NCBI GenBank assembly: GCA_963663765.2
Contig: CAXXUA010000013.1
Location: 480,001-544,000, forward strand
Reading direction: 5' to 3'
Length of the DNA: 64,000 nucleotides
From: Candidatus Poribacteria bacterium
GTDB lineage: Bacteria > Poribacteria > WGA-4E > WGA-3G
A program made the position numbers and the translations under genes. Positions 332 through 12,500 of this stretch are shown here, piece after piece. The stretch's first letter is position 1, and each line of letters starts with the position of its first letter. The notes below the pieces were generated by a model, which was not told the origin of the DNA, ran no database searches, and saw nothing but the letters and a program-made list of their open reading frames with translations.

Positions 332-2902
332 ATGAGTAATAAAATACGTAACATGCTTTTAATCTTGTTTTTGTTCTCAATCTTATATCAACCTTATGCA
401 TATACTGAAGATTATACAAGGTGGGGATTGCCTAAAGGTGCAAAAATGCGGATCGGAAAAGGGGAAATATATGCAAATATAGTATTCTCACCAGATAGTT
501 CACGACTCGCTGTTTCAAGCTCAATCGGAATTTGGATTTACGATGTAAACACAGCAACGGAAATTGCACTACTTGATATACACGACAGTTTTCCAACAAG
601 TGTCGCCTTCAGTCCTGATGGACAAACAATCGCTTGTAGTAGTGCCAACAATTTTTATATCTGGGACGTAGAAACTGGTGATCTCAAACATAAAGTTCCT
701 GGAGATTCAATATTCATCACAAATTTAGCTTTTAGTCCTGATGGAGGCACACTTGCAACTGGCGGAAGAACAGAAGATCAGATCATGTTATGGGATGCAA
801 ACAGCGCTACATTGATAGATACATTCAAAGATCATAGCACTGAAATTGACTTCATAGCATTTAATCCAGATGGAAAGACACTCGCAAGTGTTAGTGACCT
901 TGAAGATGATAGGATAGACGTTTGGAATGTCAATACAGGAGAAATTCAAAACACGATAAACACAGTCAATGATATTGAATTTAATAAAATAGTATACAGT
1001 CCCAATGGCAACACAATTCTAAGTTATGATAATTGGCATGATGATAAAATACACGTGTGGAATGTGGATACAGGTACATACAACGGTGCACTTATTGGTC
1101 ACACAGAGAAAATAAAAACCGTCGTATTCAGTCACGATGGAAAAACCCTCGCAAGTGGGGGTGAAGATGATACTATCATTCTCTGGGATGCTGCTACTTG
1201 GAGCTATAAAAAAACGCTTATTGCACATACGAATTACGTTGTAAGTATCGCATTTAGTCCAGATGGGAAAACAATGGCAAGTGGTAGTCGGGATGGTACT
1301 ATCATCTTCTGGGATACAGACAGTTTTCTGCAGATTGGAAAAATAACTGGACACAATTATGGATTCAGAAGCATTGCTTTCAATCCAAGTGGAGATAAAA
1401 TTGTAACCGGCAGCCGTGACACCACCGTCCGAGTTTGGAATACAAATACTGGTGAAAACACAATTACCTTCTTAGGACATATCGCAGACATTCAAACGGT
1501 GGCGTTCAGTCCTGATGGAATAACAATCGCAAGTGGTGCTGGTTCTTCCGTGAATAACGGATGGTTCGCGGATGACTACACTGTGCGACTATGGGATGTT
1601 ACAACACAGACTCAAAAGGCAGTCTTACTTGGTCACCACGGTACTGTCTATCACATAACTTTCAGCCCTGATGGAAGTATGGTCGCAAGTTGTGGAAGTG
1701 AAGGAAAGGCAATCTTTTGGGATACCGAAACAGGGCATCCAATATGGACTATCAATGGGGATAGAGGTGAACTAAAAAAACAAAATGAAAAAAGAAAAAG
1801 TATTGGTGGGTTAACTTTTAGTCCTGATGGACAAAAAGTTGCAAATGGAAATTTTGATGGAATATATGTTTGGGATTTCGCAAGCAGACAACAGATAGGA
1901 ACATACACAGGTTTGACAATAGCAGATCCATGGAGTGTGTTTAGTCCTAACGGTAATACACTTGCTGCTATCTTGGAGGATAACGACGTGCGTCTGTGGA
2001 ATATACCTACAAGTGAGAAAAAACAGAACTTACTCCCAAACGCAACTAACTTCGTCAGTTTTGGAAACAACCCAGAAGAATACTCTCCAATTACTACCGG
2101 TTATTGGGATAACGATAAAATTAAGTTTATGGCCCCCTTCAAAGGTGGTGCCGCAATCACACTACAAGTAAAACAGGATGAAGTTGATGTGATCGCATTT
2201 AGTCCTGATGGTAAAACCCTCGCCACAGCAAGCTTCGGTGGAACAATTCTTTTATGGGACGTTAGCTCCATTTCCGATCCATCTCACCAAATTGCAGACT
2301 TAAACAACGATGGTAGAGAAGGTATACATGATCTGATGGTAATCGCAAATAATTTTGGAAAAACTGGCTTTAATACCACAGATGTAAACAACGACGGTAT
2401 AGTCAATATTGAAGACTTGATTAGAGCAATTGGTACGTTTAGAAATCCTGATGCAGTACTTAACGCTGTGCGTCAAGGCAAGGACATTGCACCCACAAGA
2501 GAAACTGCAAAAACTTGGTTGGCAGAAGCACTACATTTGGAAAAAACGGATTACATATCTCTAATAGGTGTTCAATTCCTCAAAGATCTTATCGTTGCAT
2601 TATATCCATTGCAAACTGCTTTGCTGCCGAACTATCCCAACCCCTTCAATCCAGAAACGTGGATTCCATATCAACTGGCAAGATCTGAAGACATAGCTAT
2701 CAAAATCTATTCCGCTGATGGACGTTTGATTAGAACTTTAGATATTGGACATAAACCCGTTGGACTCTACTTAGAACAAGAAAAGGCTGCGTATTGGGAC
2801 GGTGAAAACGAATTAGGTGAAACGGTCGCAAGTGGCGTATATTTTTACACGCTCACAGCAGGAAAATTCACCGCAACTCGCAAAATGTTAATACGAAAAT
2901 AA
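332..2902 (+). CDS. Secreted WD40-repeat protein with dockerin-like/EF-hand repeats and FlgD-Ig/T9SS-like C-terminal domain
   Basis: Signal peptide; many GH...AFSPDG..LASG..D.T..LWD repeats; DLNNDG/DVNNDGIVNIEDL; NYPNPFNPETWIPYQL tail; SD GGAG upstream. Confidence 0.92.
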   Translation: MSNKIRNMLLILFLFSILYQPYAYTEDYTRWGLPKGAKMRIGKGEIYANIVFSPDSSRLAVSSSIGIWIYDVNTATEIALLDIHDSFPTSVAFSPDGQTIACSSANNFYIWDVETGDLKHKVPGDSIFITNLAFSPDGGTLATGGRTEDQIMLWDANSATLIDTFKDHSTEIDFIAFNPDGKTLASVSDLEDDRIDVWNVNTGEIQNTINTVNDIEFNKIVYSPNGNTILSYDNWHDDKIHVWNVDTGTYNGALIGHTEKIKTVVFSHDGKTLASGGEDDTIILWDAATWSYKKTLIAHTNYVVSIAFSPDGKTMASGSRDGTIIFWDTDSFLQIGKITGHNYGFRSIAFNPSGDKIVTGSRDTTVRVWNTNTGENTITFLGHIADIQTVAFSPDGITIASGAGSSVNNGWFADDYTVRLWDVTTQTQKAVLLGHHGTVYHITFSPDGSMVASCGSEGKAIFWDTETGHPIWTINGDRGELKKQNEKRKSIGGLTFSPDGQKVANGNFDGIYVWDFASRQQIGTYTGLTIADPWSVFSPNGNTLAAILEDNDVRLWNIPTSEKKQNLLPNATNFVSFGNNPEEYSPITTGYWDNDKIKFMAPFKGGAAITLQVKQDEVDVIAFSPDGKTLATASFGGTILLWDVSSISDPSHQIADLNNDGREGIHDLMVIANNFGKTGFNTTDVNNDGIVNIEDLIRAIGTFRNPDAVLNAVRQGKDIAPTRETAKTWLAEALHLEKTDYISLIGVQFLKDLIVALYPLQTALLPNYPNPFNPETWIPYQLARSEDIAIKIYSADGRLIRTLDIGHKPVGLYLEQEKAAYWDGENELGETVASGVYFYTLTAGKFTATRKMLIRK

Positions 2903-3534
2903 GCAGTACTTTATATATAAAGATTTACCGAAATCTAATGTAAATCTATTGGATATATATTGTTCAACACCATTGCTGAATTACTAAAATACCGCTCATG
3001 GCATGTTATAATAGACATTATAATGTCCAATGAACACATTTCTCTCTCAAAGAAAATATAACTAACAAGTCAAAAATCAAAAACAAAAAATTACAACAAA
3101 AAAACGATAAAAATCCATTTAGTTGTTTTTTTTCAAAATTTCGCAAACCAACATAAACCTATACCACGACACGATCGACAACACTTATGAAAAAAACCCA
3201 AAAAACCCCAAAAAAACAACTATAAAATTCCACCATTTGGACAAGGATCACAACCAACGACATTCCATGCTTACAAAAGAAGGAAAAATCGGAGTTGAAA
3301 ATTCCTGCTACAAGAACTTTTCACACAGTAGAAACGTTAGATAGAATTACCGACTCAATTTATTATTCTTCATCAAAAATAAACAACAATGAAAAATCAC
3401 AAATATACAAATTAAAAACTTATCGTCAAAAAAAATCAAGAAATTACTGACAAAATATCCAAATTGCACCCTTTCAGCAACAATTAGAAATCTAACATTT
3501 GAACGCATTCAATTCCATAAAGGCTCAAAACCTC

Positions 3535-5602
3535 ATGAGTAAAAGCTTATTTTCAATTCTCTCAATTCTATTTCTCCTTTCAATACAACATTTTCAGATA
3601 ACATTTGCCCAAGATTCACCGCAATTCAGTTTGCCTGAAGGTGCTACAGCACGTTTGGGAAAAGGTTCGGTCAGACAAGTACTATACTCCCCCGATGGAA
3701 AACATCTTGCTGTTGCAAGTACCATCGGTATTTGGATATATGACGTTGAAACATACAAAGAGATCGCACTATTAGCAGGTCATACAAAGAGTATAACTTG
3801 TATAGCATTCAGTCCTGATGGAAATAAACTCGCAAGCGGGTCGAGGGACATTACAATACAACTATGGGATATGGCAACATACAAACATAAGCAGACCCTC
3901 ACAGGACATTTACACGGTATCAATAGTTTAGCATTCAGTCCTGATGGAAATATACTCGCAAGCGGAAGTACGGGTGAACGTGATGGAGAACAAATCTTTG
4001 GTGCTAAAATCCGATTATGGGATACGCCATCAGGGAAACACATGCACACGCTCGCTGCACAAGGACAAGTCGATTCTCTGGCATTCAGTCCTGATGGAAA
4101 AACAATCGCAAGTGGTGAGGGATGGCCTAAGTACGCAACCCGTATTTACGATGTAGATACGGGTATTGAGTTGAATTCAATTGCCGAACATTCCGATTGG
4201 ATAAATAGTGTCACATTTGGACAGGAAAAAAATACATTATTGAGTTCCAGTTATGATGGAAGTATCCGTATTTGGGATTATAAATCAACAAAACAGACGC
4301 GCGTTATTAGTGATACCCAATTAACGTGAGTCGTCTTGCTAAGTGTGCGGTTAGGAAACCGCACCTACCGTTGAAAAAAGATAAATTACGTTAATTTGGT
4401 ATGAGACAGTAAGGGCAATTATTGCAGCTACATATAATCCTGATGGCAACCTGATTGTAACTGGAAATTATTCTGGTATTTTTATTCTTGATGCTACTAC
4501 TGGTAAAGTTAAAAACACACTTGATACAGAAACTGTTGTAAGTCTTACTTTTAGTCCTGATGGAAAAACACTCACAAGTGCGCATCATGGCTGGAAGCAC
4601 ATAATTGTGTGGGATATTGATACTTGGAAAGAGAAACGCTCACTCACAGGTTTCACTCATCCAACTTATGACATCACATTTAGTCCTGATAACAACATAC
4701 TTGCAAGTGGAGGATTGGATCCATATATCTATCTTTGGGATGTTAATACTGCAGAAAAAACTAATCAACTCATTGGAAGTAAAGATAACGTTGGTTGTAT
4801 TGAATTCAGTTCAGATGGTCGTTCGCTTGTAAGCGGAAGTAATCATTCTACTGTTAACGAAAGTTATGCTACTGTTATTAAATGGGACGCAGTCACATAC
4901 ACGAAAAACCTTATATTATCTACAAAAAACAAGATTACTACTCCTTTAGTCTTAGTAAAAATAAGTCCTGATATGAGTAATTTCGCATGTGTGAGTTTAG
5001 AAGTAGTGCAAATGTGGGATATTCAGAACAGAAATCTCAAATATACGCTCCAACCTTATGCTGGGAATTTCTTAAGTATCGCATGGAGTCCAGATGGAAA
5101 GATCTTCGCAACAGGATCCAAAGGAGTACATATCGGAGAGGATCAGTCTGTCCGTTATAAAGGAATCAGTCTGTGGGATGTGGAAACAGGTGAACAACAT
5201 AAAGTGTTTGAAGCAGAGATAGGACCAGTTAGTAGTTTAGCTTTCAGTCCGGATGGGAAAACGCTTGCAAGTGACGGATTAGGAACAGACTACGCTGTCC
5301 TTTTGTGGGACGTGTCTACAGGGGAAGCAAAATTTATCTTAAAAGGACATACATTGATTATTATGTGTGTAGCGTTTAGTCCTAACGGTAATATACTTGC
5401 AAGTGGTAGTGCTGACAATACTATCCGTCTATGGAATGTTACAACAGGTAAACATATAAGGACATTAAACGGACATACAGAAGCAATAAAGAACATTACC
5501 TTTAGCTCAGACGGCAAAAAATTAGCCAGCTGTAGTTATGATGGAACGATATATTTATGGAACGTAGGTTCTTCCGAAAATTCTATTGATACTGCAAAAT
5601 AG
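3535..5602 (+). pseudogene. Secreted WD40-repeat protein disrupted by an 88-bp MITE (split into ORFs 3499..4329 and 4607..5602)
   Basis: Removing 4312..4402 (91 nt) joins ...RVIS to ETVRAIIAATYNPDG...VWDID in frame with the 4607 ORF; both halves are WD40 repeats. Confidence 0.88.
4314..4401. mobile_element. 88-bp MITE (family A) with internal REP-like hairpin
   Basis: TIR TACCCAATTAACGT / ACGTTAATTTGGTA (13/14); TSD TGA at 4311-4313 and 4402-4404; contains GTAGGTGCGGTTTCCTAACCGCAC on the - strand. Confidence 0.85.
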
Positions 5603-8535: not shown

Positions 8536-9693
8536 ATGCAAAAAACTTTACTCTCAATATGTTTAAGTCTAATGATATTTGCGAATATTGGATGTGATAA
8601 CGTAATAAAGGTACTAGATTCCGCTAGAACTGAACCCACTATAAAGATCGGTTTCGTCGTCGCTGGTGAACGCATTTCATATCCCAATGGAGCTGAAATG
8701 GCTGTCACAGAAATCAACGAAAAAGGCGGACTGCTTGGGATGCGTGTTGAATTAATCGGGCATATCAACAATGAAGCAATATTGGATGTCTCAGTGCAAC
8801 TCGCGGAATCGTTGATCCTTGAAGACGGTGTTGTTGCTCTAATAGGACCAAACCGTTCTTCACACGCAGCAGTCGTCGGTCCTATAGCACAGAAGCATCG
8901 GATACCAATGGTCACTACAACCGCAACAAATCCGAATGTGACAAATGCTGGTGATTTTGTATTTATGGCATCCTTCACCGATAGTTTTCAAGGCGCAGTC
9001 ATGGCACAATTCGCAAAGAATGAACTCGGTATCTCAAACGCCGCTCTCATCACACGTAGTGGTGACCTATATACTGAAGGCATATCTGAATTTTTTGAAT
9101 CCAACTTTTTATCACTCGGTGGGAACGTGGTTGCACATGTGTTCTTTGATGGCGGAACTCTTGATTATACACAACACTTGATGCAAATCGCTGACTTACT
9201 ACCTGAGGCACTCTTCACTGCAGGATTTGTTCAAGACATTGCCAGCATCACGCAACAAGCACGTGTTGTGCCATTGCTAAACGCTGTTGGGGCACCGACA
9301 ATCTTCCTCGGTGCAGATTCATGGGACAGCACATTGTTGTTTGACGACGAAAATGCTGAAATTGAAGGCAGCTTCTTTAGTGGACATTTTTCACCTGAAA
9401 CGGATGAACCGAACGCACGTGCTTTTGTTGAAACCTACGAAGCCATCTATGAATCTACGCCAACTGGTGGTGTCGCAGTCAGTTACGATGCTGTCAAATT
9501 GCTAATTGAAGCCATAGAACGTGCTGAAAGTTTGGACCCAGAGATTATACGCGATGAACTTGCTGCTACCAAAAACTATGTCGGAGCAACAAGTATCTCC
9601 AGCTATAACGAAAACCGTCATCCCACCAAAAGTGCAGTTATTTTCACTATCAAAAACGGTGAAAAAAAGTTCTATAAGCAAATTCATCCTTAG
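8536..9693 (+). CDS. LivJ-like (type 1 periplasmic binding) ABC substrate-binding lipoprotein
   Basis: Lipobox-like NIGC; GAEMAVTEINEKGGLLG; FTDSFQG; YDAVKLL. Confidence 0.88.
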   Translation: MQKTLLSICLSLMIFANIGCDNVIKVLDSARTEPTIKIGFVVAGERISYPNGAEMAVTEINEKGGLLGMRVELIGHINNEAILDVSVQLAESLILEDGVVALIGPNRSSHAAVVGPIAQKHRIPMVTTTATNPNVTNAGDFVFMASFTDSFQGAVMAQFAKNELGISNAALITRSGDLYTEGISEFFESNFLSLGGNVVAHVFFDGGTLDYTQHLMQIADLLPEALFTAGFVQDIASITQQARVVPLLNAVGAPTIFLGADSWDSTLLFDDENAEIEGSFFSGHFSPETDEPNARAFVETYEAIYESTPTGGVAVSYDAVKLLIEAIERAESLDPEIIRDELAATKNYVGATSISSYNENRHPTKSAVIFTIKNGEKKFYKQIHP

Positions 9694-9742
9694 AATTTGC
9701 TCATAGAGGTAGAGTGACAGTATCTAAATATCTACATATTTC

Positions 9743-9771
9743 TTGACATTCCTTGATATTTATGTGATACT
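9743..9771 (+). promoter_or_regulatory. Sigma70-type promoter giving a probably leaderless tnpA transcript
   Basis: TTGACA (9743-9748), 17-nt spacer, TGn-GATACT (9766-9771); tnpA ATG lies 7 nt after the -10 with no SD. Confidence 0.6.
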
Positions 9772-9777
9772 ATATAC

Positions 9778-10365
9778 ATGACTTATGTATCAGCGCGCAA
9801 AGCAATTGAGCTGCTGGATTATACACCTGACCATTTACGGAGGTTGGCAAATGAAGGAAAGATTGATATTATCCGCACAGGAGGCGGACACAGACGCTAT
9901 GATGTTGACGGATACATCAAAAGCAAATCCAAATCAATTGCAACTGTTTGCTACTGCAGAGTATCCAGCACAAAGCAAAGAGAAGACCTTGAACGACAAG
10001 TTGAATATATGCGAAGTATCTACCCCGAAGCAGAAGTTATCCGAGACATCGGAAGCGGAATCAACTTCAAAAGAAAAGGGCTTAGAACCTTATTGGAACG
10101 GCTTATGCAAGGTGATAAGCTCAAAGTTGTTATTGCCCATCGGGATAGACTCGCCCGCTTCGGTATCGACCTTATACAATACCTCATTGAACAAAACGGT
10201 GGCGAACTCGTGGTTCTCGATCAAACAGAACACAGTCCGCAAGAAGAACTCACGTCGGATCTTCTCGCAATCCTGCACGTCTTCAGTTACAGAATGCACG
10301 GACTCCGAAGTTACCGTGACAAAATCAAAGAAGATAAGAGTTTATCCGACAACAGAACAATGTGA
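9778..10365 (+). CDS. tnpA: IS607 transposase TnpA (MerR-type HTH + serine recombinase)
   Basis: RTGGGHRRYD HTH; YCRVSS catalytic Ser; DIGSGINFKRKGL; HRDRLARFG. Confidence 0.95.
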   Translation: MTYVSARKAIELLDYTPDHLRRLANEGKIDIIRTGGGHRRYDVDGYIKSKSKSIATVCYCRVSSTKQREDLERQVEYMRSIYPEAEVIRDIGSGINFKRKGLRTLLERLMQGDKLKVVIAHRDRLARFGIDLIQYLIEQNGGELVVLDQTEHSPQEELTSDLLAILHVFSYRMHGLRSYRDKIKEDKSLSDNRTM

Positions 10366-11434
10366 AACACTGCGTCAGTGGTTTGGCACAGCACGTTTTA
10401 CTTATAATAAAACAATTGCTTTGTTGAACGAAACAGACACAAAAGCGAATTGGAAAGCGATAAAAACAGGTATTCTTCACGATCTTCCTGATTGGAGCAA
10501 AGAAACACCGTATCAAGTGAAATCTGTTGCTATCCGTGACGCTTGTATTGCTGTCCGAGAAGCAAAGCGAAAATGCAAGAAAACAGGTCAATATCAGTCT
10601 GTTTTTTTCAAATCCAAACGTCATCCATCAGATAGTATTTTCATACCAAAGTCTGCTATAAAACCTCGCGGTGTTTATCACACAGTGCTTGGTGATCTCA
10701 AAATGTCAGAGATGTTACCTGATAATATCTGTGACTCACGCCTCGTGAAAGAGAATGATAAATACTATCTCTGTGTTTCCTATACTGTGACAACTCCGAA
10801 GCGAAAACCAAACGGAAGTGTTGTTGCTTTAGACCCTGGCGTGAGAACATTCCTCACATATTTCCATGAGCGTGGTTTCGGATGGCTTGGACACCATGCT
10901 ATCAATCGGATTCAAAGACTTTGTTCATACCTTGATAATCTTTTATCCCGTGCAATAAAAGCGACACAACAATCACGCAAGAATATGAGACGTGCTGCAA
11001 ATCGCATCAGAAAACGTATCAGATATCTTGTTGACGAGTTGCATCATAAAATAGCACGTTTCCTTGTGGATACCTTTGATATTATCCTACTCCCTACTTT
11101 TGAGACTTCAGATATGGTAATGCGTGGAAACCGCAAACTACACAAGAAGTCTGCCCGACAAATGTTGACACTGTCGCACTACAGATTCAAACATTTTCTA
11201 AAGCACAAAGCGAAAGAGACTGGATGTCTCGTCATTGATGTCTGTGAAGCATACACATCAAAAACAGTTTCGTGGAATGGTGAGATTAGAAAATCACTCG
11301 GTGGACGAAAGATAATAAAAGATAGCATGGGACTCAAGATGGACAGAGACTTGAATGGCGCACGCGGGATATTTTTGCGTGCTTTGGTAGATGAACCCTG
11401 GTTGCTTTCTATAAGCAACTTGCAAACCGTATAA
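9851..11434 (+). CDS. tnpB: IS607 TnpB RNA-guided nuclease, Fanzor-like RuvC arrangement; start uncertain (ATG 9851 with SD, or GTG 10316)
   Basis: KKIRVYPT..Q...LRQWFGTARFTYN; ALDPGVRTF; IILLP; CEAYTSKT; DRDLNGARGI. Confidence 0.9.
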   Translation: MKERLILSAQEADTDAMMLTDTSKANPNQLQLFATAEYPAQSKEKTLNDKLNICEVSTPKQKLSETSEAESTSKEKGLEPYWNGLCKVISSKLLLPIGIDSPASVSTLYNTSLNKTVANSWFSIKQNTVRKKNSRRIFSQSCTSSVTECTDSEVTVTKSKKIRVYPTTEQCETLRQWFGTARFTYNKTIALLNETDTKANWKAIKTGILHDLPDWSKETPYQVKSVAIRDACIAVREAKRKCKKTGQYQSVFFKSKRHPSDSIFIPKSAIKPRGVYHTVLGDLKMSEMLPDNICDSRLVKENDKYYLCVSYTVTTPKRKPNGSVVALDPGVRTFLTYFHERGFGWLGHHAINRIQRLCSYLDNLLSRAIKATQQSRKNMRRAANRIRKRIRYLVDELHHKIARFLVDTFDIILLPTFETSDMVMRGNRKLHKKSARQMLTLSHYRFKHFLKHKAKETGCLVIDVCEAYTSKTVSWNGEIRKSLGGRKIIKDSMGLKMDRDLNGARGIFLRALVDEPWLLSISNLQTV

Positions 11435-11495
11435 GATGTGAAATGCACAGCATTGCACGGAAATATACAGGTTAATATCATCGGTAGGAGTAAAC

Positions 11496-12500
11496 ATGAA
11501 TAGACCACCAGAAGAGTTTGTAAATGTAACAGAAAACCGACTGTTTAAGTTCAGCACCACATGCTTTGAAAAAGCAGGTCTCACCCATGAACACGCGGCA
11601 CTCATTAGCCGTTTGCTTGTGAATTCCGACTTACGCGGTGTCCGTAGCCACGGCACGCGCACAGTCAACGGCTACTGTAACGGATTTGAAAACGGAAGTC
11701 TCAATCCAAATCCCAATGTCACTGTCATCCATGAAACACCCACTGCTGTTGTTCTTAATGGTGATGGCACACTCGGTTACCTTCCAATGGTCCGTGCGAC
11801 TGAACGTGCTATCATAAAGGCAAAAAAGGTCGGTATCGGGATGGGACTCGTACGTTATATAGGACACTACGGTTCCGCAGGCCATTATGCACGACTCTGT
11901 AATGAAGCGGGTTGCATCGGTTTTTCAGTACAAGGCTATCAGAACCACGGCAACGCTGGAAATAGTGACAATAAACCACAACTCGGATATTATGGTAACC
12001 CACCGATATGTTTTGCAATAACATCAGGTGACGAACCTCCTGTCGTACTTGACGCAGCGACTTGCATCATGGCAGACTACCAACGCGGACCGGAATTTGA
12101 TGAACTACTTTCAATGATCCCAGCAGCATTCTTTAAGAGTATCGGTTATACCGCTGTGGCGTGCCTACTCGGCGGCGCATTAACTGGCTTCACCGAACCC
12201 GCACCAGAAGAAACCGCAAAATGGAGCGGTGTGCGTCATGGCGGCATGGTACTGGCAATTCATATTGAATCTGTTGTTCCACCGGATCTCTTCCATGCCG
12301 AAGTCGATCGCTTGGTGCGCGATGTCCGACAAACCTACGAACCCTTGCCAGGAACCGATCAAGCATTTTTACCTGGTGCAATCGAAGAGGAACGAACAAA
12401 ACTACATCGACAAAACGGTATACGTTATGGTGAAATGGAACAGTCATCCGCTCGCGCTGTAAGCAAACGCCTCGGTGTTCCATTGCCTTGGGAAGAATAA
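11496..12500 (+). CDS. Ldh_2 family (type 2 malate/L-lactate/ureidoglycolate-like) oxidoreductase
   Basis: SDLRGVRSHG, GHYGSAGHYA, GNPPIC, LPG near C-terminus; SD AGGAG. Confidence 0.85.
   Translation: MNRPPEEFVNVTENRLFKFSTTCFEKAGLTHEHAALISRLLVNSDLRGVRSHGTRTVNGYCNGFENGSLNPNPNVTVIHETPTAVVLNGDGTLGYLPMVRATERAIIKAKKVGIGMGLVRYIGHYGSAGHYARLCNEAGCIGFSVQGYQNHGNAGNSDNKPQLGYYGNPPICFAITSGDEPPVVLDAATCIMADYQRGPEFDELLSMIPAAFFKSIGYTAVACLLGGALTGFTEPAPEETAKWSGVRHGGMVLAIHIESVVPPDLFHAEVDRLVRDVRQTYEPLPGTDQAFLPGAIEEERTKLHRQNGIRYGEMEQSSARAVSKRLGVPLPWEE

Follow-up and report, generated by a model that had tools for sequence, protein, structure and literature searches.

The insertion sequence at positions 9708–11484 of the window, by which we mean the whole 64,000-nucleotide (nt) stretch of Candidatus Poribacteria DNA analysed here, is likely to be an active IS607-family element that encodes a zinc-less, Fanzor-type RNA-guided TnpB of 527 amino acids (aa) and carries an omegaRNA at its right end. 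The 372-aa gene model for its tnpB is probably too short: the protein would start at ATG 9851, inside the serine recombinase gene tnpA, and its first residues would be read from a second frame that overprints tnpA. All eukaryotic RNA-guided nucleases are proposed to descend from bacterial relatives of Fanzor, which are also candidate compact genome editors. The features on which the argument for the long protein rests are the following; ApmFz2 (also ApmFNuc) is the mimivirus L79 Fanzor2 protein.

9708..11484, forward strand: whole IS607-family element, from GG 9708–9709 to GG 11483–11484
9778..10365, forward strand: tnpA, IS607 serine recombinase of 195 aa, recognised by NF033518 and Pfam Resolvase
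9851..11434, forward strand: tnpB, proposed 527-aa form, ATG 9851 preceded by GGAGG at 9840–9844; 10316–11434 encodes the C-terminal 372 aa
9851..10315, forward strand: putative N-terminal extension of TnpB in the +1 frame of tnpA, based on stop depletion, codon pattern, controls, tnpA-less loci and the ApmFz2 match
10088..10096, forward strand: P-Y-W motif P102-Y103-W104 in a predicted helix, 100, 100 and 98% conserved in 45 loci
10205..10216, forward strand: N-S-W-F motif N141-S142-W143-F144, aligning with ApmFz2 N82-S83-W84-Y85

Residues of these two motifs are numbered in the 549-aa open frame, and D173, P260, E263, E311 and D345, discussed below, in the 372-aa open reading frame (ORF). 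Both genes are recognised by family models. TnpA matches the NF033518 equivalog at 175.1 bits against a cut-off of 110 (E = 1e-51) and Pfam Resolvase at E = 7.5e-19, in agreement with the IS607 tnpA linkage claimed in a preliminary description of this DNA. The ORF 10316–11434 begins with GTG, translates without stops into 372 aa and matches NCBIfam NF040570 (guided_TnpB) at 137.7 bits against a cut-off of 100 over residues 6–352, with Pfam PF12323 (HTH_OrfB_IS605), PF01385 (OrfB_IS605) and PF07282 (TNB) all over cut-off. The same description took this ORF to be a complete, compact protein. Its coordinates and reading frame stand, but its start probably does not: the frame is stop-free back to 9785, 7 nt past the tnpA ATG, and the codon at 10316, which lacks a Shine-Dalgarno motif, is start-type in just 40% of 45 loci. 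The compact 372-aa protein is thus probably one of 527 aa.

With the start at ATG 9851, tnpA and tnpB share 515 nt (9851–10365) in two frames. In the protein collection, most close homologues are called at 523–533 aa, and 62 of 151 sequences (150 representatives and the query) have at least 100 additional N-terminal residues. At the level of loci, at least 135 codons are open 5′ of the core in 68 of 81. Among the 48 loci that remained after filtering for a complete, in-phase tnpA, 45 have no stop in the tnpA +1 frame from codon 25 on, compared with a mean of 5.2 stops when synonymous codons are shuffled within each tnpA, where the probability of finding none averages 0.002. Seven of seven control IS607 elements, from plasmids, contain 7–29 stops where the tnpB frame runs through tnpA, as many as the shuffled means predict; their annotated tnpA/tnpB overlaps measure 7–50 nt and the upstream frame is open for just 1–26 codons. 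The stop depletion and these controls rule out that the second frame is open by chance.

The way in which tnpA varies points in the same direction. At the PYW, LLLP and SWF motifs, tnpA codons change only at base 1, which is the wobble position of the second frame. At PYW, the tnpA codons are NCC, NTA and YTG in 48, 48 and 47 of the 48 loci; NCC (ACC/GCC/TCC) gives Pro, NTA (TTA/CTA/ATA) gives Tyr, and NTG followed by G (GTG/CTG/ATG/TTG) gives Trp in 48/48. Because these changes sit at second-frame wobble positions, TnpA varies between T, A and S, between L and I, and between V, L and M without any change to P, Y and W. Of the 541 Val codons in the tnpA genes, 41 are GTG, the least used of the four, and the Trp site accounts for 31 of these. 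Identity at four-fold sites is 0.597 in the overlap versus 0.326 in tnpB alone across 320 cyanobacterial pairs. In nearly all of the 48 loci, an in-frame ATG preceded by a GGAGG/GAGGAAG-like purine stretch occurs at +67 to +76 relative to the tnpA ATG, the exceptions including L035, L036, L054, L058 and L080.

The extension frame also persists where tnpA is gone. Among viral loci, 72 of 80 have tnpA in the same phase, one of them on a contig named GVMAG, which we take to stand for a giant-virus metagenome-assembled genome (MAG). In viral loci without tnpA, the extension frame is open for 67–103 codons and the former tnpA frame contains 3–16 stops; SWF is kept in five of the eight viral loci without a tnpA match. 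Wobble-only variation and this persistence rule out that second-frame conservation is a mere shadow of TnpA. As read from these codon comparisons, purifying selection is shown to act on the second frame inside tnpA. One tnpA-less viral locus (L158, positions 3001–4311 of a 174,811-bp IMG/VR contig) encodes a zinc-finger-bearing protein with a KKRKR run before PYW...SWF and has 16 stops in the former tnpA frame; from its sequence, it looks like a Fanzor2 of the eukaryote-virus type.

The extension has a recognisable structural counterpart. Extensions share P-[YF]-W, LWLPT and (N)SWF across 32–53% identity, and W143 is invariant in 59/59 and 108/108 long forms, where it is among 14 and 12 invariant columns, respectively. 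A profile of the 59 long forms searched against the Protein Data Bank (PDB) matches ApmFz2 (chain 9b0l_P) at E = 3e-69, with the alignment running from L79 residue 77. In the AlphaFold2 (AF2) model of the 549-aa frame, built with 108 sequences, the mean predicted local distance difference test score (pLDDT) is 76.4 and the predicted template modelling score (pTM) 0.71; the core exceeds pLDDT 90, the helix 106–114 in the PYW region reaches about 83 and the strand 145–151 after SWF about 87. The top structural match is again 9b0l_P (Z 28.3, root mean square deviation 4.5 over 413 residues, model residues 100–539 on chain residues 53–518), at about 22% identity over the structural alignment; for ISDra2 and other TnpB/Cas12f chains, the alignment begins only at model residue 176. 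Together, the profile and fold matches place the extension on residues 53–130 of the ApmFz2 N-terminal domain (NTD). The extension alone matches no Pfam family, and inspection by eye revealed no K/R-rich run resembling a nuclear localization signal (NLS) in the window extension. Eukaryotic proteins retain the motifs, as PFW..LW..GWF in Naegleria lovaniensis and PFW..LW..GWG in Lipomyces tetrasporus. In the ApmFz2 structure paper (NSMB 2024, PMC11832414), Fanzor2 residues 65–91 (RuvC-R) are described as completing the RuvC fold, Asn82 and Ser83 as touching a base pair of the omegaRNA pseudoknot and residues 109–130 as a basic ‘thumb’ on the DNA beside the target-adjacent motif (TAM), and the NTD is termed unique to Fanzor2. 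Judged by sequence profile and predicted fold, the window extension is very likely to be the counterpart of this RuvC-R/thumb NTD. A literature search that left subscription journals and supplements outside its reach found no description of a long tnpA/tnpB overlap or of a bacterial pro-Fanzor NTD.

Several observations weigh against the long protein. The frame is shortened in 13 of 81 unfiltered loci, which look damaged or truncated, and in 3 of the 48 filtered ones. Between Poribacteria-type and cyanobacterial loci, the excess of four-fold-site identity in the overlap is modest (0.374 versus 0.285 in tnpB alone). A phmmer search with the single 549-aa frame reached back only to L79 residue 123, the NTD match requiring the family profile, and of the 155 extra residues AF2 models about 30 with confidence, residues 1–100 being below pLDDT 40 and predicted disordered. 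Alternatively, the functional TnpB might be the 372-aa protein from GTG 10316, the upstream frame being untranslated and conserved through tnpA or through DNA or RNA signals; some database entries are called at 371–386 aa, most of the extension is disordered in the AF2 model, and the core alone, from residue 176, matches complete TnpB structures. We nonetheless judge this improbable, given the poorly conserved start codon at 10316, a stop depletion in 45 of 48 loci that the control elements do not share, variation confined to second-frame wobble positions as TnpA residues change, the survival of the frame where tnpA has been destroyed and the homology of the extension to a domain in the Fanzor2 cryo-EM structure. 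We infer that the long form is translated.

The core of the protein carries the rearranged active site of Fanzor2, and it lacks a zinc finger. The residues concerned are:

10832..10834 (GAC), forward strand: RuvC-I Asp D173, in DPG, kept in 121/121 sequences, aligning with ApmFz2 D324
11093..11095 (CCT), forward strand: Pro P260 in IILLP, at the canonical RuvC-II Glu position, in 121/121; it falls on the catalytic Glu of ordinary TnpBs
11246..11248 (GAA), forward strand: alternative RuvC-II Glu E311 in CEAYTSKT, in 121/121, aligning with ApmFz2 E467
11348..11350, forward strand: RuvC-III Asp D345, the second D of DRD (D343-R-D345, GAC AGA GAC at 11342–11350), at least 90% conserved in 45 sequences
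11267..11329, forward strand: former zinc-finger segment without cysteines, V318 and N321 (TVSWNGE) and D336 and M338 (IKDSMG), from the alignment to L79

The 121 sequences are the query and its 120 best homologues, at 56–92% identity, and conservation was read by eye off their alignment. The codons are all as first described: DPG at 10832, Pro at 11093, the alternative Glu 51 codons on at 11246, and DRD at 11342–11350. E311 lies six residues ahead of the former first zinc knuckle (E311, AYTSKT, V318) and is invariant in the 59 and 108 long forms as well; R344 and N347 are invariant in the 45 sequences, and D343 is Asn in several close homologues. The closest solved structure by sequence is 9b0l_P (E = 1e-24), the next chain following at 2.9e-6. 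In the HMMER alignment, E311 falls on the Glu of ‘NEYLTTKT’ in L79 and P260 on a Gly; the L79 numbers D324 and E467 were counted by hand on the printed alignment. D324A and E467A are each reported to abolish cleavage by ApmFNuc (Sci Adv 2023, PMC10530073), and the solved catalytic triad of ApmFz2 is given as D324, E467 and D501 (PMC11832414). As part of the joint explanation, we consider with reasonable confidence that D173, E311 and D345 form the catalytic triad of a predicted nuclease. Because D173, P260 and E311 are kept in 121/121 sequences and no CxxC pair is present in any, chance or decay is excluded as the origin of the rearranged site. A branching with canonical IS605/IS1341 TnpBs, which would have contradicted the earlier assignment, was not seen: ordinary TnpBs score E values of 3e-6 or higher, the best fold match is to Fanzor2, and the protein falls inside the DPG/alternative-Glu group in the tree described below.

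A second candidate for the RuvC-II carboxylate is E263, in PTFE, which might act alone or with E311 in a site that is slightly shifted and not Fanzor-like. The position is Glu in 114 of the 121 sequences, Asp in 6 and Asn in 1, and it lies in the same strand-loop region as the canonical Glu. It is, however, not on the canonical catalytic position, a concern raised in the preliminary description: E263 aligns three residues past it, on the Asn of ‘EDLN’ in an ordinary TnpB and of ‘GKLN’ in L79. Asn occupies the position both in ordinary TnpBs and in L79, an active enzyme that relies on E467, equivalent to E311, and E263 is outside the invariant and 90% columns of the wider alignments in which E311 never changes. 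All of this makes the assignment quite unlikely.

The claim that the zinc-finger cysteines are replaced by TVSWNGE...IKDSMG is correct, as cysteines are missing at all four knuckle positions. The CxxC...CxxC of L79 is met in the window by V..N and by gap/D..M. A CxxC pair is found at neither knuckle in any of the 121 sequences; the 120 best homologues share a cysteine-free SKTVSW[TN]GE...IK...G..MDRD, in which W320 and G322 are invariant, and AF2 models the segment at pLDDT 86–91 with metal absent. For a wider view we took the best 150 cluster representatives (50% identity level) and the query; of these 151, 136 could be classified and 15 fragments or unparsable sequences were dropped. Knuckle cysteines are absent from 58 of the 136, number one to three in 15 (often the first only, SKTCSW[ST]GE) and are complete in 63. 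A FastTree phylogeny of the 136, rooted with four canonical TnpBs of the window’s own genome, splits the ingroup from this outgroup with support 100. It places 56 of the 58 cysteine-free rows in one 71-row group (56 cysteine-free, 14 partial and 1 four-cysteine; support 90), nested in a 99-row group that includes the window (support 99) and whose other branches keep four cysteines; the remaining two cysteine-free rows lie elsewhere within the 99-row group, and deeper branches of the tree retain the zinc finger. Since surrounding and deeper branches keep it, the finger would have been lost in a derived manner within the DPG/alternative-Glu clade. By these alignments the loss is a family trait and not decay, the finger being replaced by a Trp-containing cysteine-free segment.

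The tree also qualifies the earlier statement that the protein belongs to the clade closest to Fanzor2. Membership in the DPG/alternative-Glu clade is upheld, but the zinc-less group is a derived side branch and not the nearest branch to eukaryotic Fanzor2. NLS-type proteins form a separate 25-row clade (support 98) of which the window group is not the nearest neighbour; this clade contains true eukaryotic Fanzor2, because one member has named relatives in Naegleria lovaniensis and Lipomyces. In the paper that defined the pro-Fanzor set (NAR 2023, PMC10711439), the regular expression demanded CxxC...CxxC and the set is described as exclusively cyanobacterial. As the pattern needed CxxC, that search could not find zinc-less proteins, and we file the window TnpB, in which CxxC is absent, as a zinc-less variant of the clade outside the published set. 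Its hosts differ too: the loci nearest to it are from Candidatus Poribacteria, and cyanobacteria start at or below 62% identity. According to a PNAS 2023 study (PMC10691335), Cas12f and the majority of TnpBs conserve the zinc finger, and ‘some large TnpB branches’ lack it; those branches are named only in its SI Appendix Fig. S3, where the window clade may be marked. Among the control elements, the tnpB at 2799–4142 of a Ligilactobacillus salivarius plasmid (L183) is an ordinary IS607 TnpB with DPG at RuvC-I, no CxxC and a closed upstream frame, and may represent an independent loss of the finger by its sequence.

Loss of a finger that most TnpBs and Cas12f conserve could instead mean that the zinc-less protein is decaying or has been exapted, for example as an RNA-guided DNA binder without nuclease activity. 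Several points weigh against the favoured reading of the core. A literature search found no nuclease, TAM or guide experiment on any zinc-less member of the clade. The tree was made by FastTree on the best 150 representatives only, and the support of 90 at its key node is under the threshold of 95. In a related lineage, six loci (L027–L032) on one Candidatus Poribacteria chromosome record, at 77–79% identity, read MDRALNGARG, with Ala for the RuvC-III Asp in all six; a nuclease-dead variant seems, from these sequences, to have multiplied there, which means that the element can spread without an active nuclease. The three of these loci that passed the filters (L027, L030 and L031) still have the long frame and tnpA open. 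We regard decay or exaptation of the window protein as very doubtful all the same: its catalytic residues are conserved as listed above, the zinc-less state occurs in 58 representative clusters with W320 and G322 invariant, the gene sits in a mobile, multi-copy insertion sequence with tnpA and a covarying omegaRNA, and other large TnpB branches are reported without the finger.

The omegaRNA and the predicted guide lie at the right end of the element:

11358..11484, forward strand: omegaRNA (right-end RNA, reRNA) scaffold, from covariation in 19 loci, overlapping the last 77 nt of tnpB
11390..11394, forward strand: pseudoknot 5′ arm GAUGA in a hairpin loop, pairing with 11478–11482 in 19/19 sequences
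11478..11482, forward strand: pseudoknot 3′ arm UCAUC, directly before the terminal GG, pairing with 11390–11394
11485..11504, forward strand: predicted guide, the first approximately 16–20 nt of the right flank, conservation stopping right after GG in all copies

The alignment comprises the last 175 nt of 19 Poribacteria-type loci, and its covariation indicates a scaffold that overlaps the tnpB 3′ end and stops at the right-end GG. The fold has four stems, an inner variable hairpin and the pseudoknot, with 45 pairs and 94.5% of cells paired. Sixteen pairs change on both sides, a number matched by none of 500 shuffles, and slid controls give 2–6. In the pseudoknot, two of the five pairs covary, with G-C changing to A-U in eight sequences and A-U to G-C in two. 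Rfam, searched in evalue mode over 9600–11700, returned no omegaRNA family and two sub-threshold chance matches. By analogy with known TnpB/IS607 systems, the right flank would serve as guide. The first base after the right-end GG, at 11485 in the window and at the same position in L013–L037, is T, C, G or A by copy.

Around these genes, the borders of the element are sharp, and two further features lie at its left end:

9706..9709, forward strand: left junction GAGG, two flank purines and the crossover GG, a putative target or TAM-like motif RRGG
9743..9771, forward strand: promoter-like site TTGACA, 17 nt, TG-GATACT, from a consensus scan with 10/12 matches plus TG

Five copies of the element are present in the genome of origin (6.35 Mb in 15 contigs, 97.8% complete), at 99.4–99.7% identity over 1778–1782 bp as determined by BLAST and oriented slices, and all five have an intact tnpA and an uninterrupted 550-codon tnpB frame. 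Their flanks are unrelated and similarity ends sharply on both sides, at junctions that read (A/G)GG|TAGAG ... ATCATCGG|flank, with the element starting GG|TAGAGTGACAG and ending ...ATATCATCGG; Poribacteria loci keep identical element ends. Inspection by eye showed no inverted repeats at the ends and no target duplication beyond the shared GG, which fits the GG-crossover mechanism described for IS607. Purine-purine-GG stands at 20 of 20 left junctions read (five own copies and 15 Poribacteria loci), a count that excludes locus L017, where the GG is not clear. RRGG is thereby a candidate TAM-like motif, by comparison with ISXfa1, ApmFz2 and CboIStron, whose TAMs are GGG/TGGG. The promoter-like site is kept in the left-end alignment and is a putative promoter; its −10 ends at 9771, 6 nt ahead of the tnpA ATG at 9778, so close that the tnpA mRNA may be leaderless or nearly so. 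Altogether, the element is likely to be an IS607-family insertion sequence that is intact and was active recently, in what is probably a Poribacteria genome.

A mechanism can be proposed from these parts and from studied relatives. TnpA would excise and insert the element by crossover at the GG within RRGG sites. TnpB would be an RNA-guided DNA endonuclease of the pro-Fanzor/Fanzor2 type, from a derived zinc-less subgroup, whose first approximately 155 residues would be translated from the tnpA +1 frame and would end in a small structured domain comprising the PYW helix, the NSWF strand and a basic tail; by its relation to mimivirus Fanzor2, this domain may brace RuvC and the omegaRNA pseudoknot. 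The tnpB transcript would provide the omegaRNA at its 3′ end (approximately 11358–11484), and the omegaRNA would take its guide from the flank past the right-end GG, so that TnpB–omegaRNA could recognise RRGG and a flank-derived guide, cut the emptied donor site and favour retention of the element, a TAM and homing role drawn by analogy. That the extension arises instead by a +1 shift of ribosomes started on tnpA, giving a TnpA–TnpB fusion, is extremely unlikely, since although both frames lie on one transcript unit and the second is open from just past the tnpA ATG, the in-frame ATG behind the purine stretch is conserved in nearly all 48 loci, openness before that ATG is not conserved (most loci have a stop shortly before it, which leaves 156–170 codons open) and tnpA-less loci have their own Met 81–93 codons upstream.

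A bolder reading concerns the origin of the Fanzor2 NTD. The domain might have been born in bacteria by overprinting, when the tnpB start moved into the tnpA +1 frame, and have been inherited by eukaryotic Fanzors after loss of tnpA; we give this an even chance, jointly with the proposition that a dual-coding stretch of approximately 500 nt is conserved across Poribacteria, cyanobacteria, phage-like and giant-virus contigs. The overprinted stretch makes the origin of the NTD directly testable, and 515 nt with selection visible in both frames is an unusually long and clean case of bacterial overprinting. If the overprinting reading is true, bacterial pro-Fanzor TnpBs have systematically been cut short in publications and annotations, and one mRNA would yield a possibly leaderless tnpA and a Shine-Dalgarno-led tnpB, coupling the two and fixing the proportion of transposase to nuclease. 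Should the long form be real, short annotated ORFs miss the domain with which Fanzor2 holds its RuvC fold, the omegaRNA pseudoknot and TAM-adjacent DNA, and constructs made from them could be inactive because they lack the NTD. The zinc-less members carry a separate message: a large zinc-finger-free branch of the clade reaches past cyanobacteria into sponge symbionts and indicates that the finger is dispensable for keeping the fold.

Among known systems, ApmFz2 (PDB 9B0L) is the most similar to the window TnpB, being its best sequence and fold match and sharing DPG at RuvC-I, an IS607-type element with a G-rich junction, a non-acidic residue at the canonical Glu position (Gly in L79, Pro in the window), an alternative Glu six residues before the knuckle, an omegaRNA pseudoknot formed with the nucleotides that immediately precede the guide, and an NTD with an N-S-W-aromatic motif. 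Unlike the window protein, L79 keeps a C4 zinc finger with bound Zn, an N-terminal NLS and Asn at the E263 position; the ApmFz2 scaffold is given as approximately 205 nt, compared with at least 127 nt in the window, and the window host is bacterial, whereas Fanzor2 proper belongs to eukaryotes or giant viruses. With the cyanobacterial ‘pro-Fanzor’ or TnpB2 proteins, as two papers describe them (PMC10711439, PMC10530073), the window TnpB shares DPG, the alternative Glu and linkage to IS607 TnpA, and many of its homologues are in Moorena, Okeania, Nostoc and other cyanobacteria; in contrast to that set, it has no CxxC, and its nearest relatives, at 62–94% identity, are in Candidatus Poribacteria MAGs. 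A word search of the text of the first of these papers (PMC10711439) yields no mention of an N-terminal extension or overlap.

The IS607 TnpBs of ISXfa1 and CboIStron resemble the window system in their serine recombinase, GG crossover, G-rich TAM and right-end omegaRNA with a pseudoknot, but have the canonical Glu and zinc finger that the window TnpB lacks; the nucleotide following the right end belongs to the scaffold and does not vary in ISXfa1, whereas in the window element it is variable. ISDra2 TnpB (PDB 8H1J, 8EXA, 8BF8) shares the WED-REC-RuvC core (Z 26.9, model residues 176–539) and Pfam domains, but is from an IS200/IS605 element with a Y1 transposase, has the canonical Glu and a zinc finger, has no NTD and matches in sequence at just E = 2e-3. 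RIIIr-4 (PNAS 2023, PMC10691335) has likewise lost C4, in a large and conserved branch whose catalytic site is rearranged; the rearrangement there affects RuvC-III and the partners are MazE-like, whereas the window TnpB is rearranged at RuvC-II and partnered by a serine recombinase.

Relatives of the element were surveyed in one genome per species, where 500 stretches encode them; the best 80 loci were inspected. Every one of these above 62% identity is titled Candidatus or uncultured Poribacteria; at or below 62%, they are mostly cyanobacteria (Spirulina, Moorena, Okeania, Prochloron, Anabaenopsis and others), and one is a Lysobacterales MAG. IMG/VR viral contigs contain relatives on 215 stretches. 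The context of the window element is bacterial, its adjacent genes having bacterial-type starts. The nearest relatives are thus in Candidatus Poribacteria MAGs, and the element is present in sequencing runs labelled sponge metagenome, as expected from the earlier remark that the lineage is often animal-associated. Contigs from RNA libraries (four runs in two studies, two of the runs having given identical pieces and possibly being a single data set) span 9711–11449 at 95% likeness or more, and none covers the flanks; contig ends at the element borders are expected, because repeats break assemblies. These contigs cannot show transcript ends, strand or level, and the libraries may contain DNA; they indicate only that the sequence is present in those libraries, and we draw no conclusion about expression. 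The genome of origin has no IS607 tnpA beyond the five copies described, and approximately 20 copies of an unrelated canonical TnpB with 401-aa frames and approximately 25% identity, for example at positions 577050–578093 of contig C13 of genome G000 (L009). The window copy is inserted 11 nt 5′ of the ATG of the next gene (11496), whose AGGAG ribosome-binding site falls within the predicted guide region.

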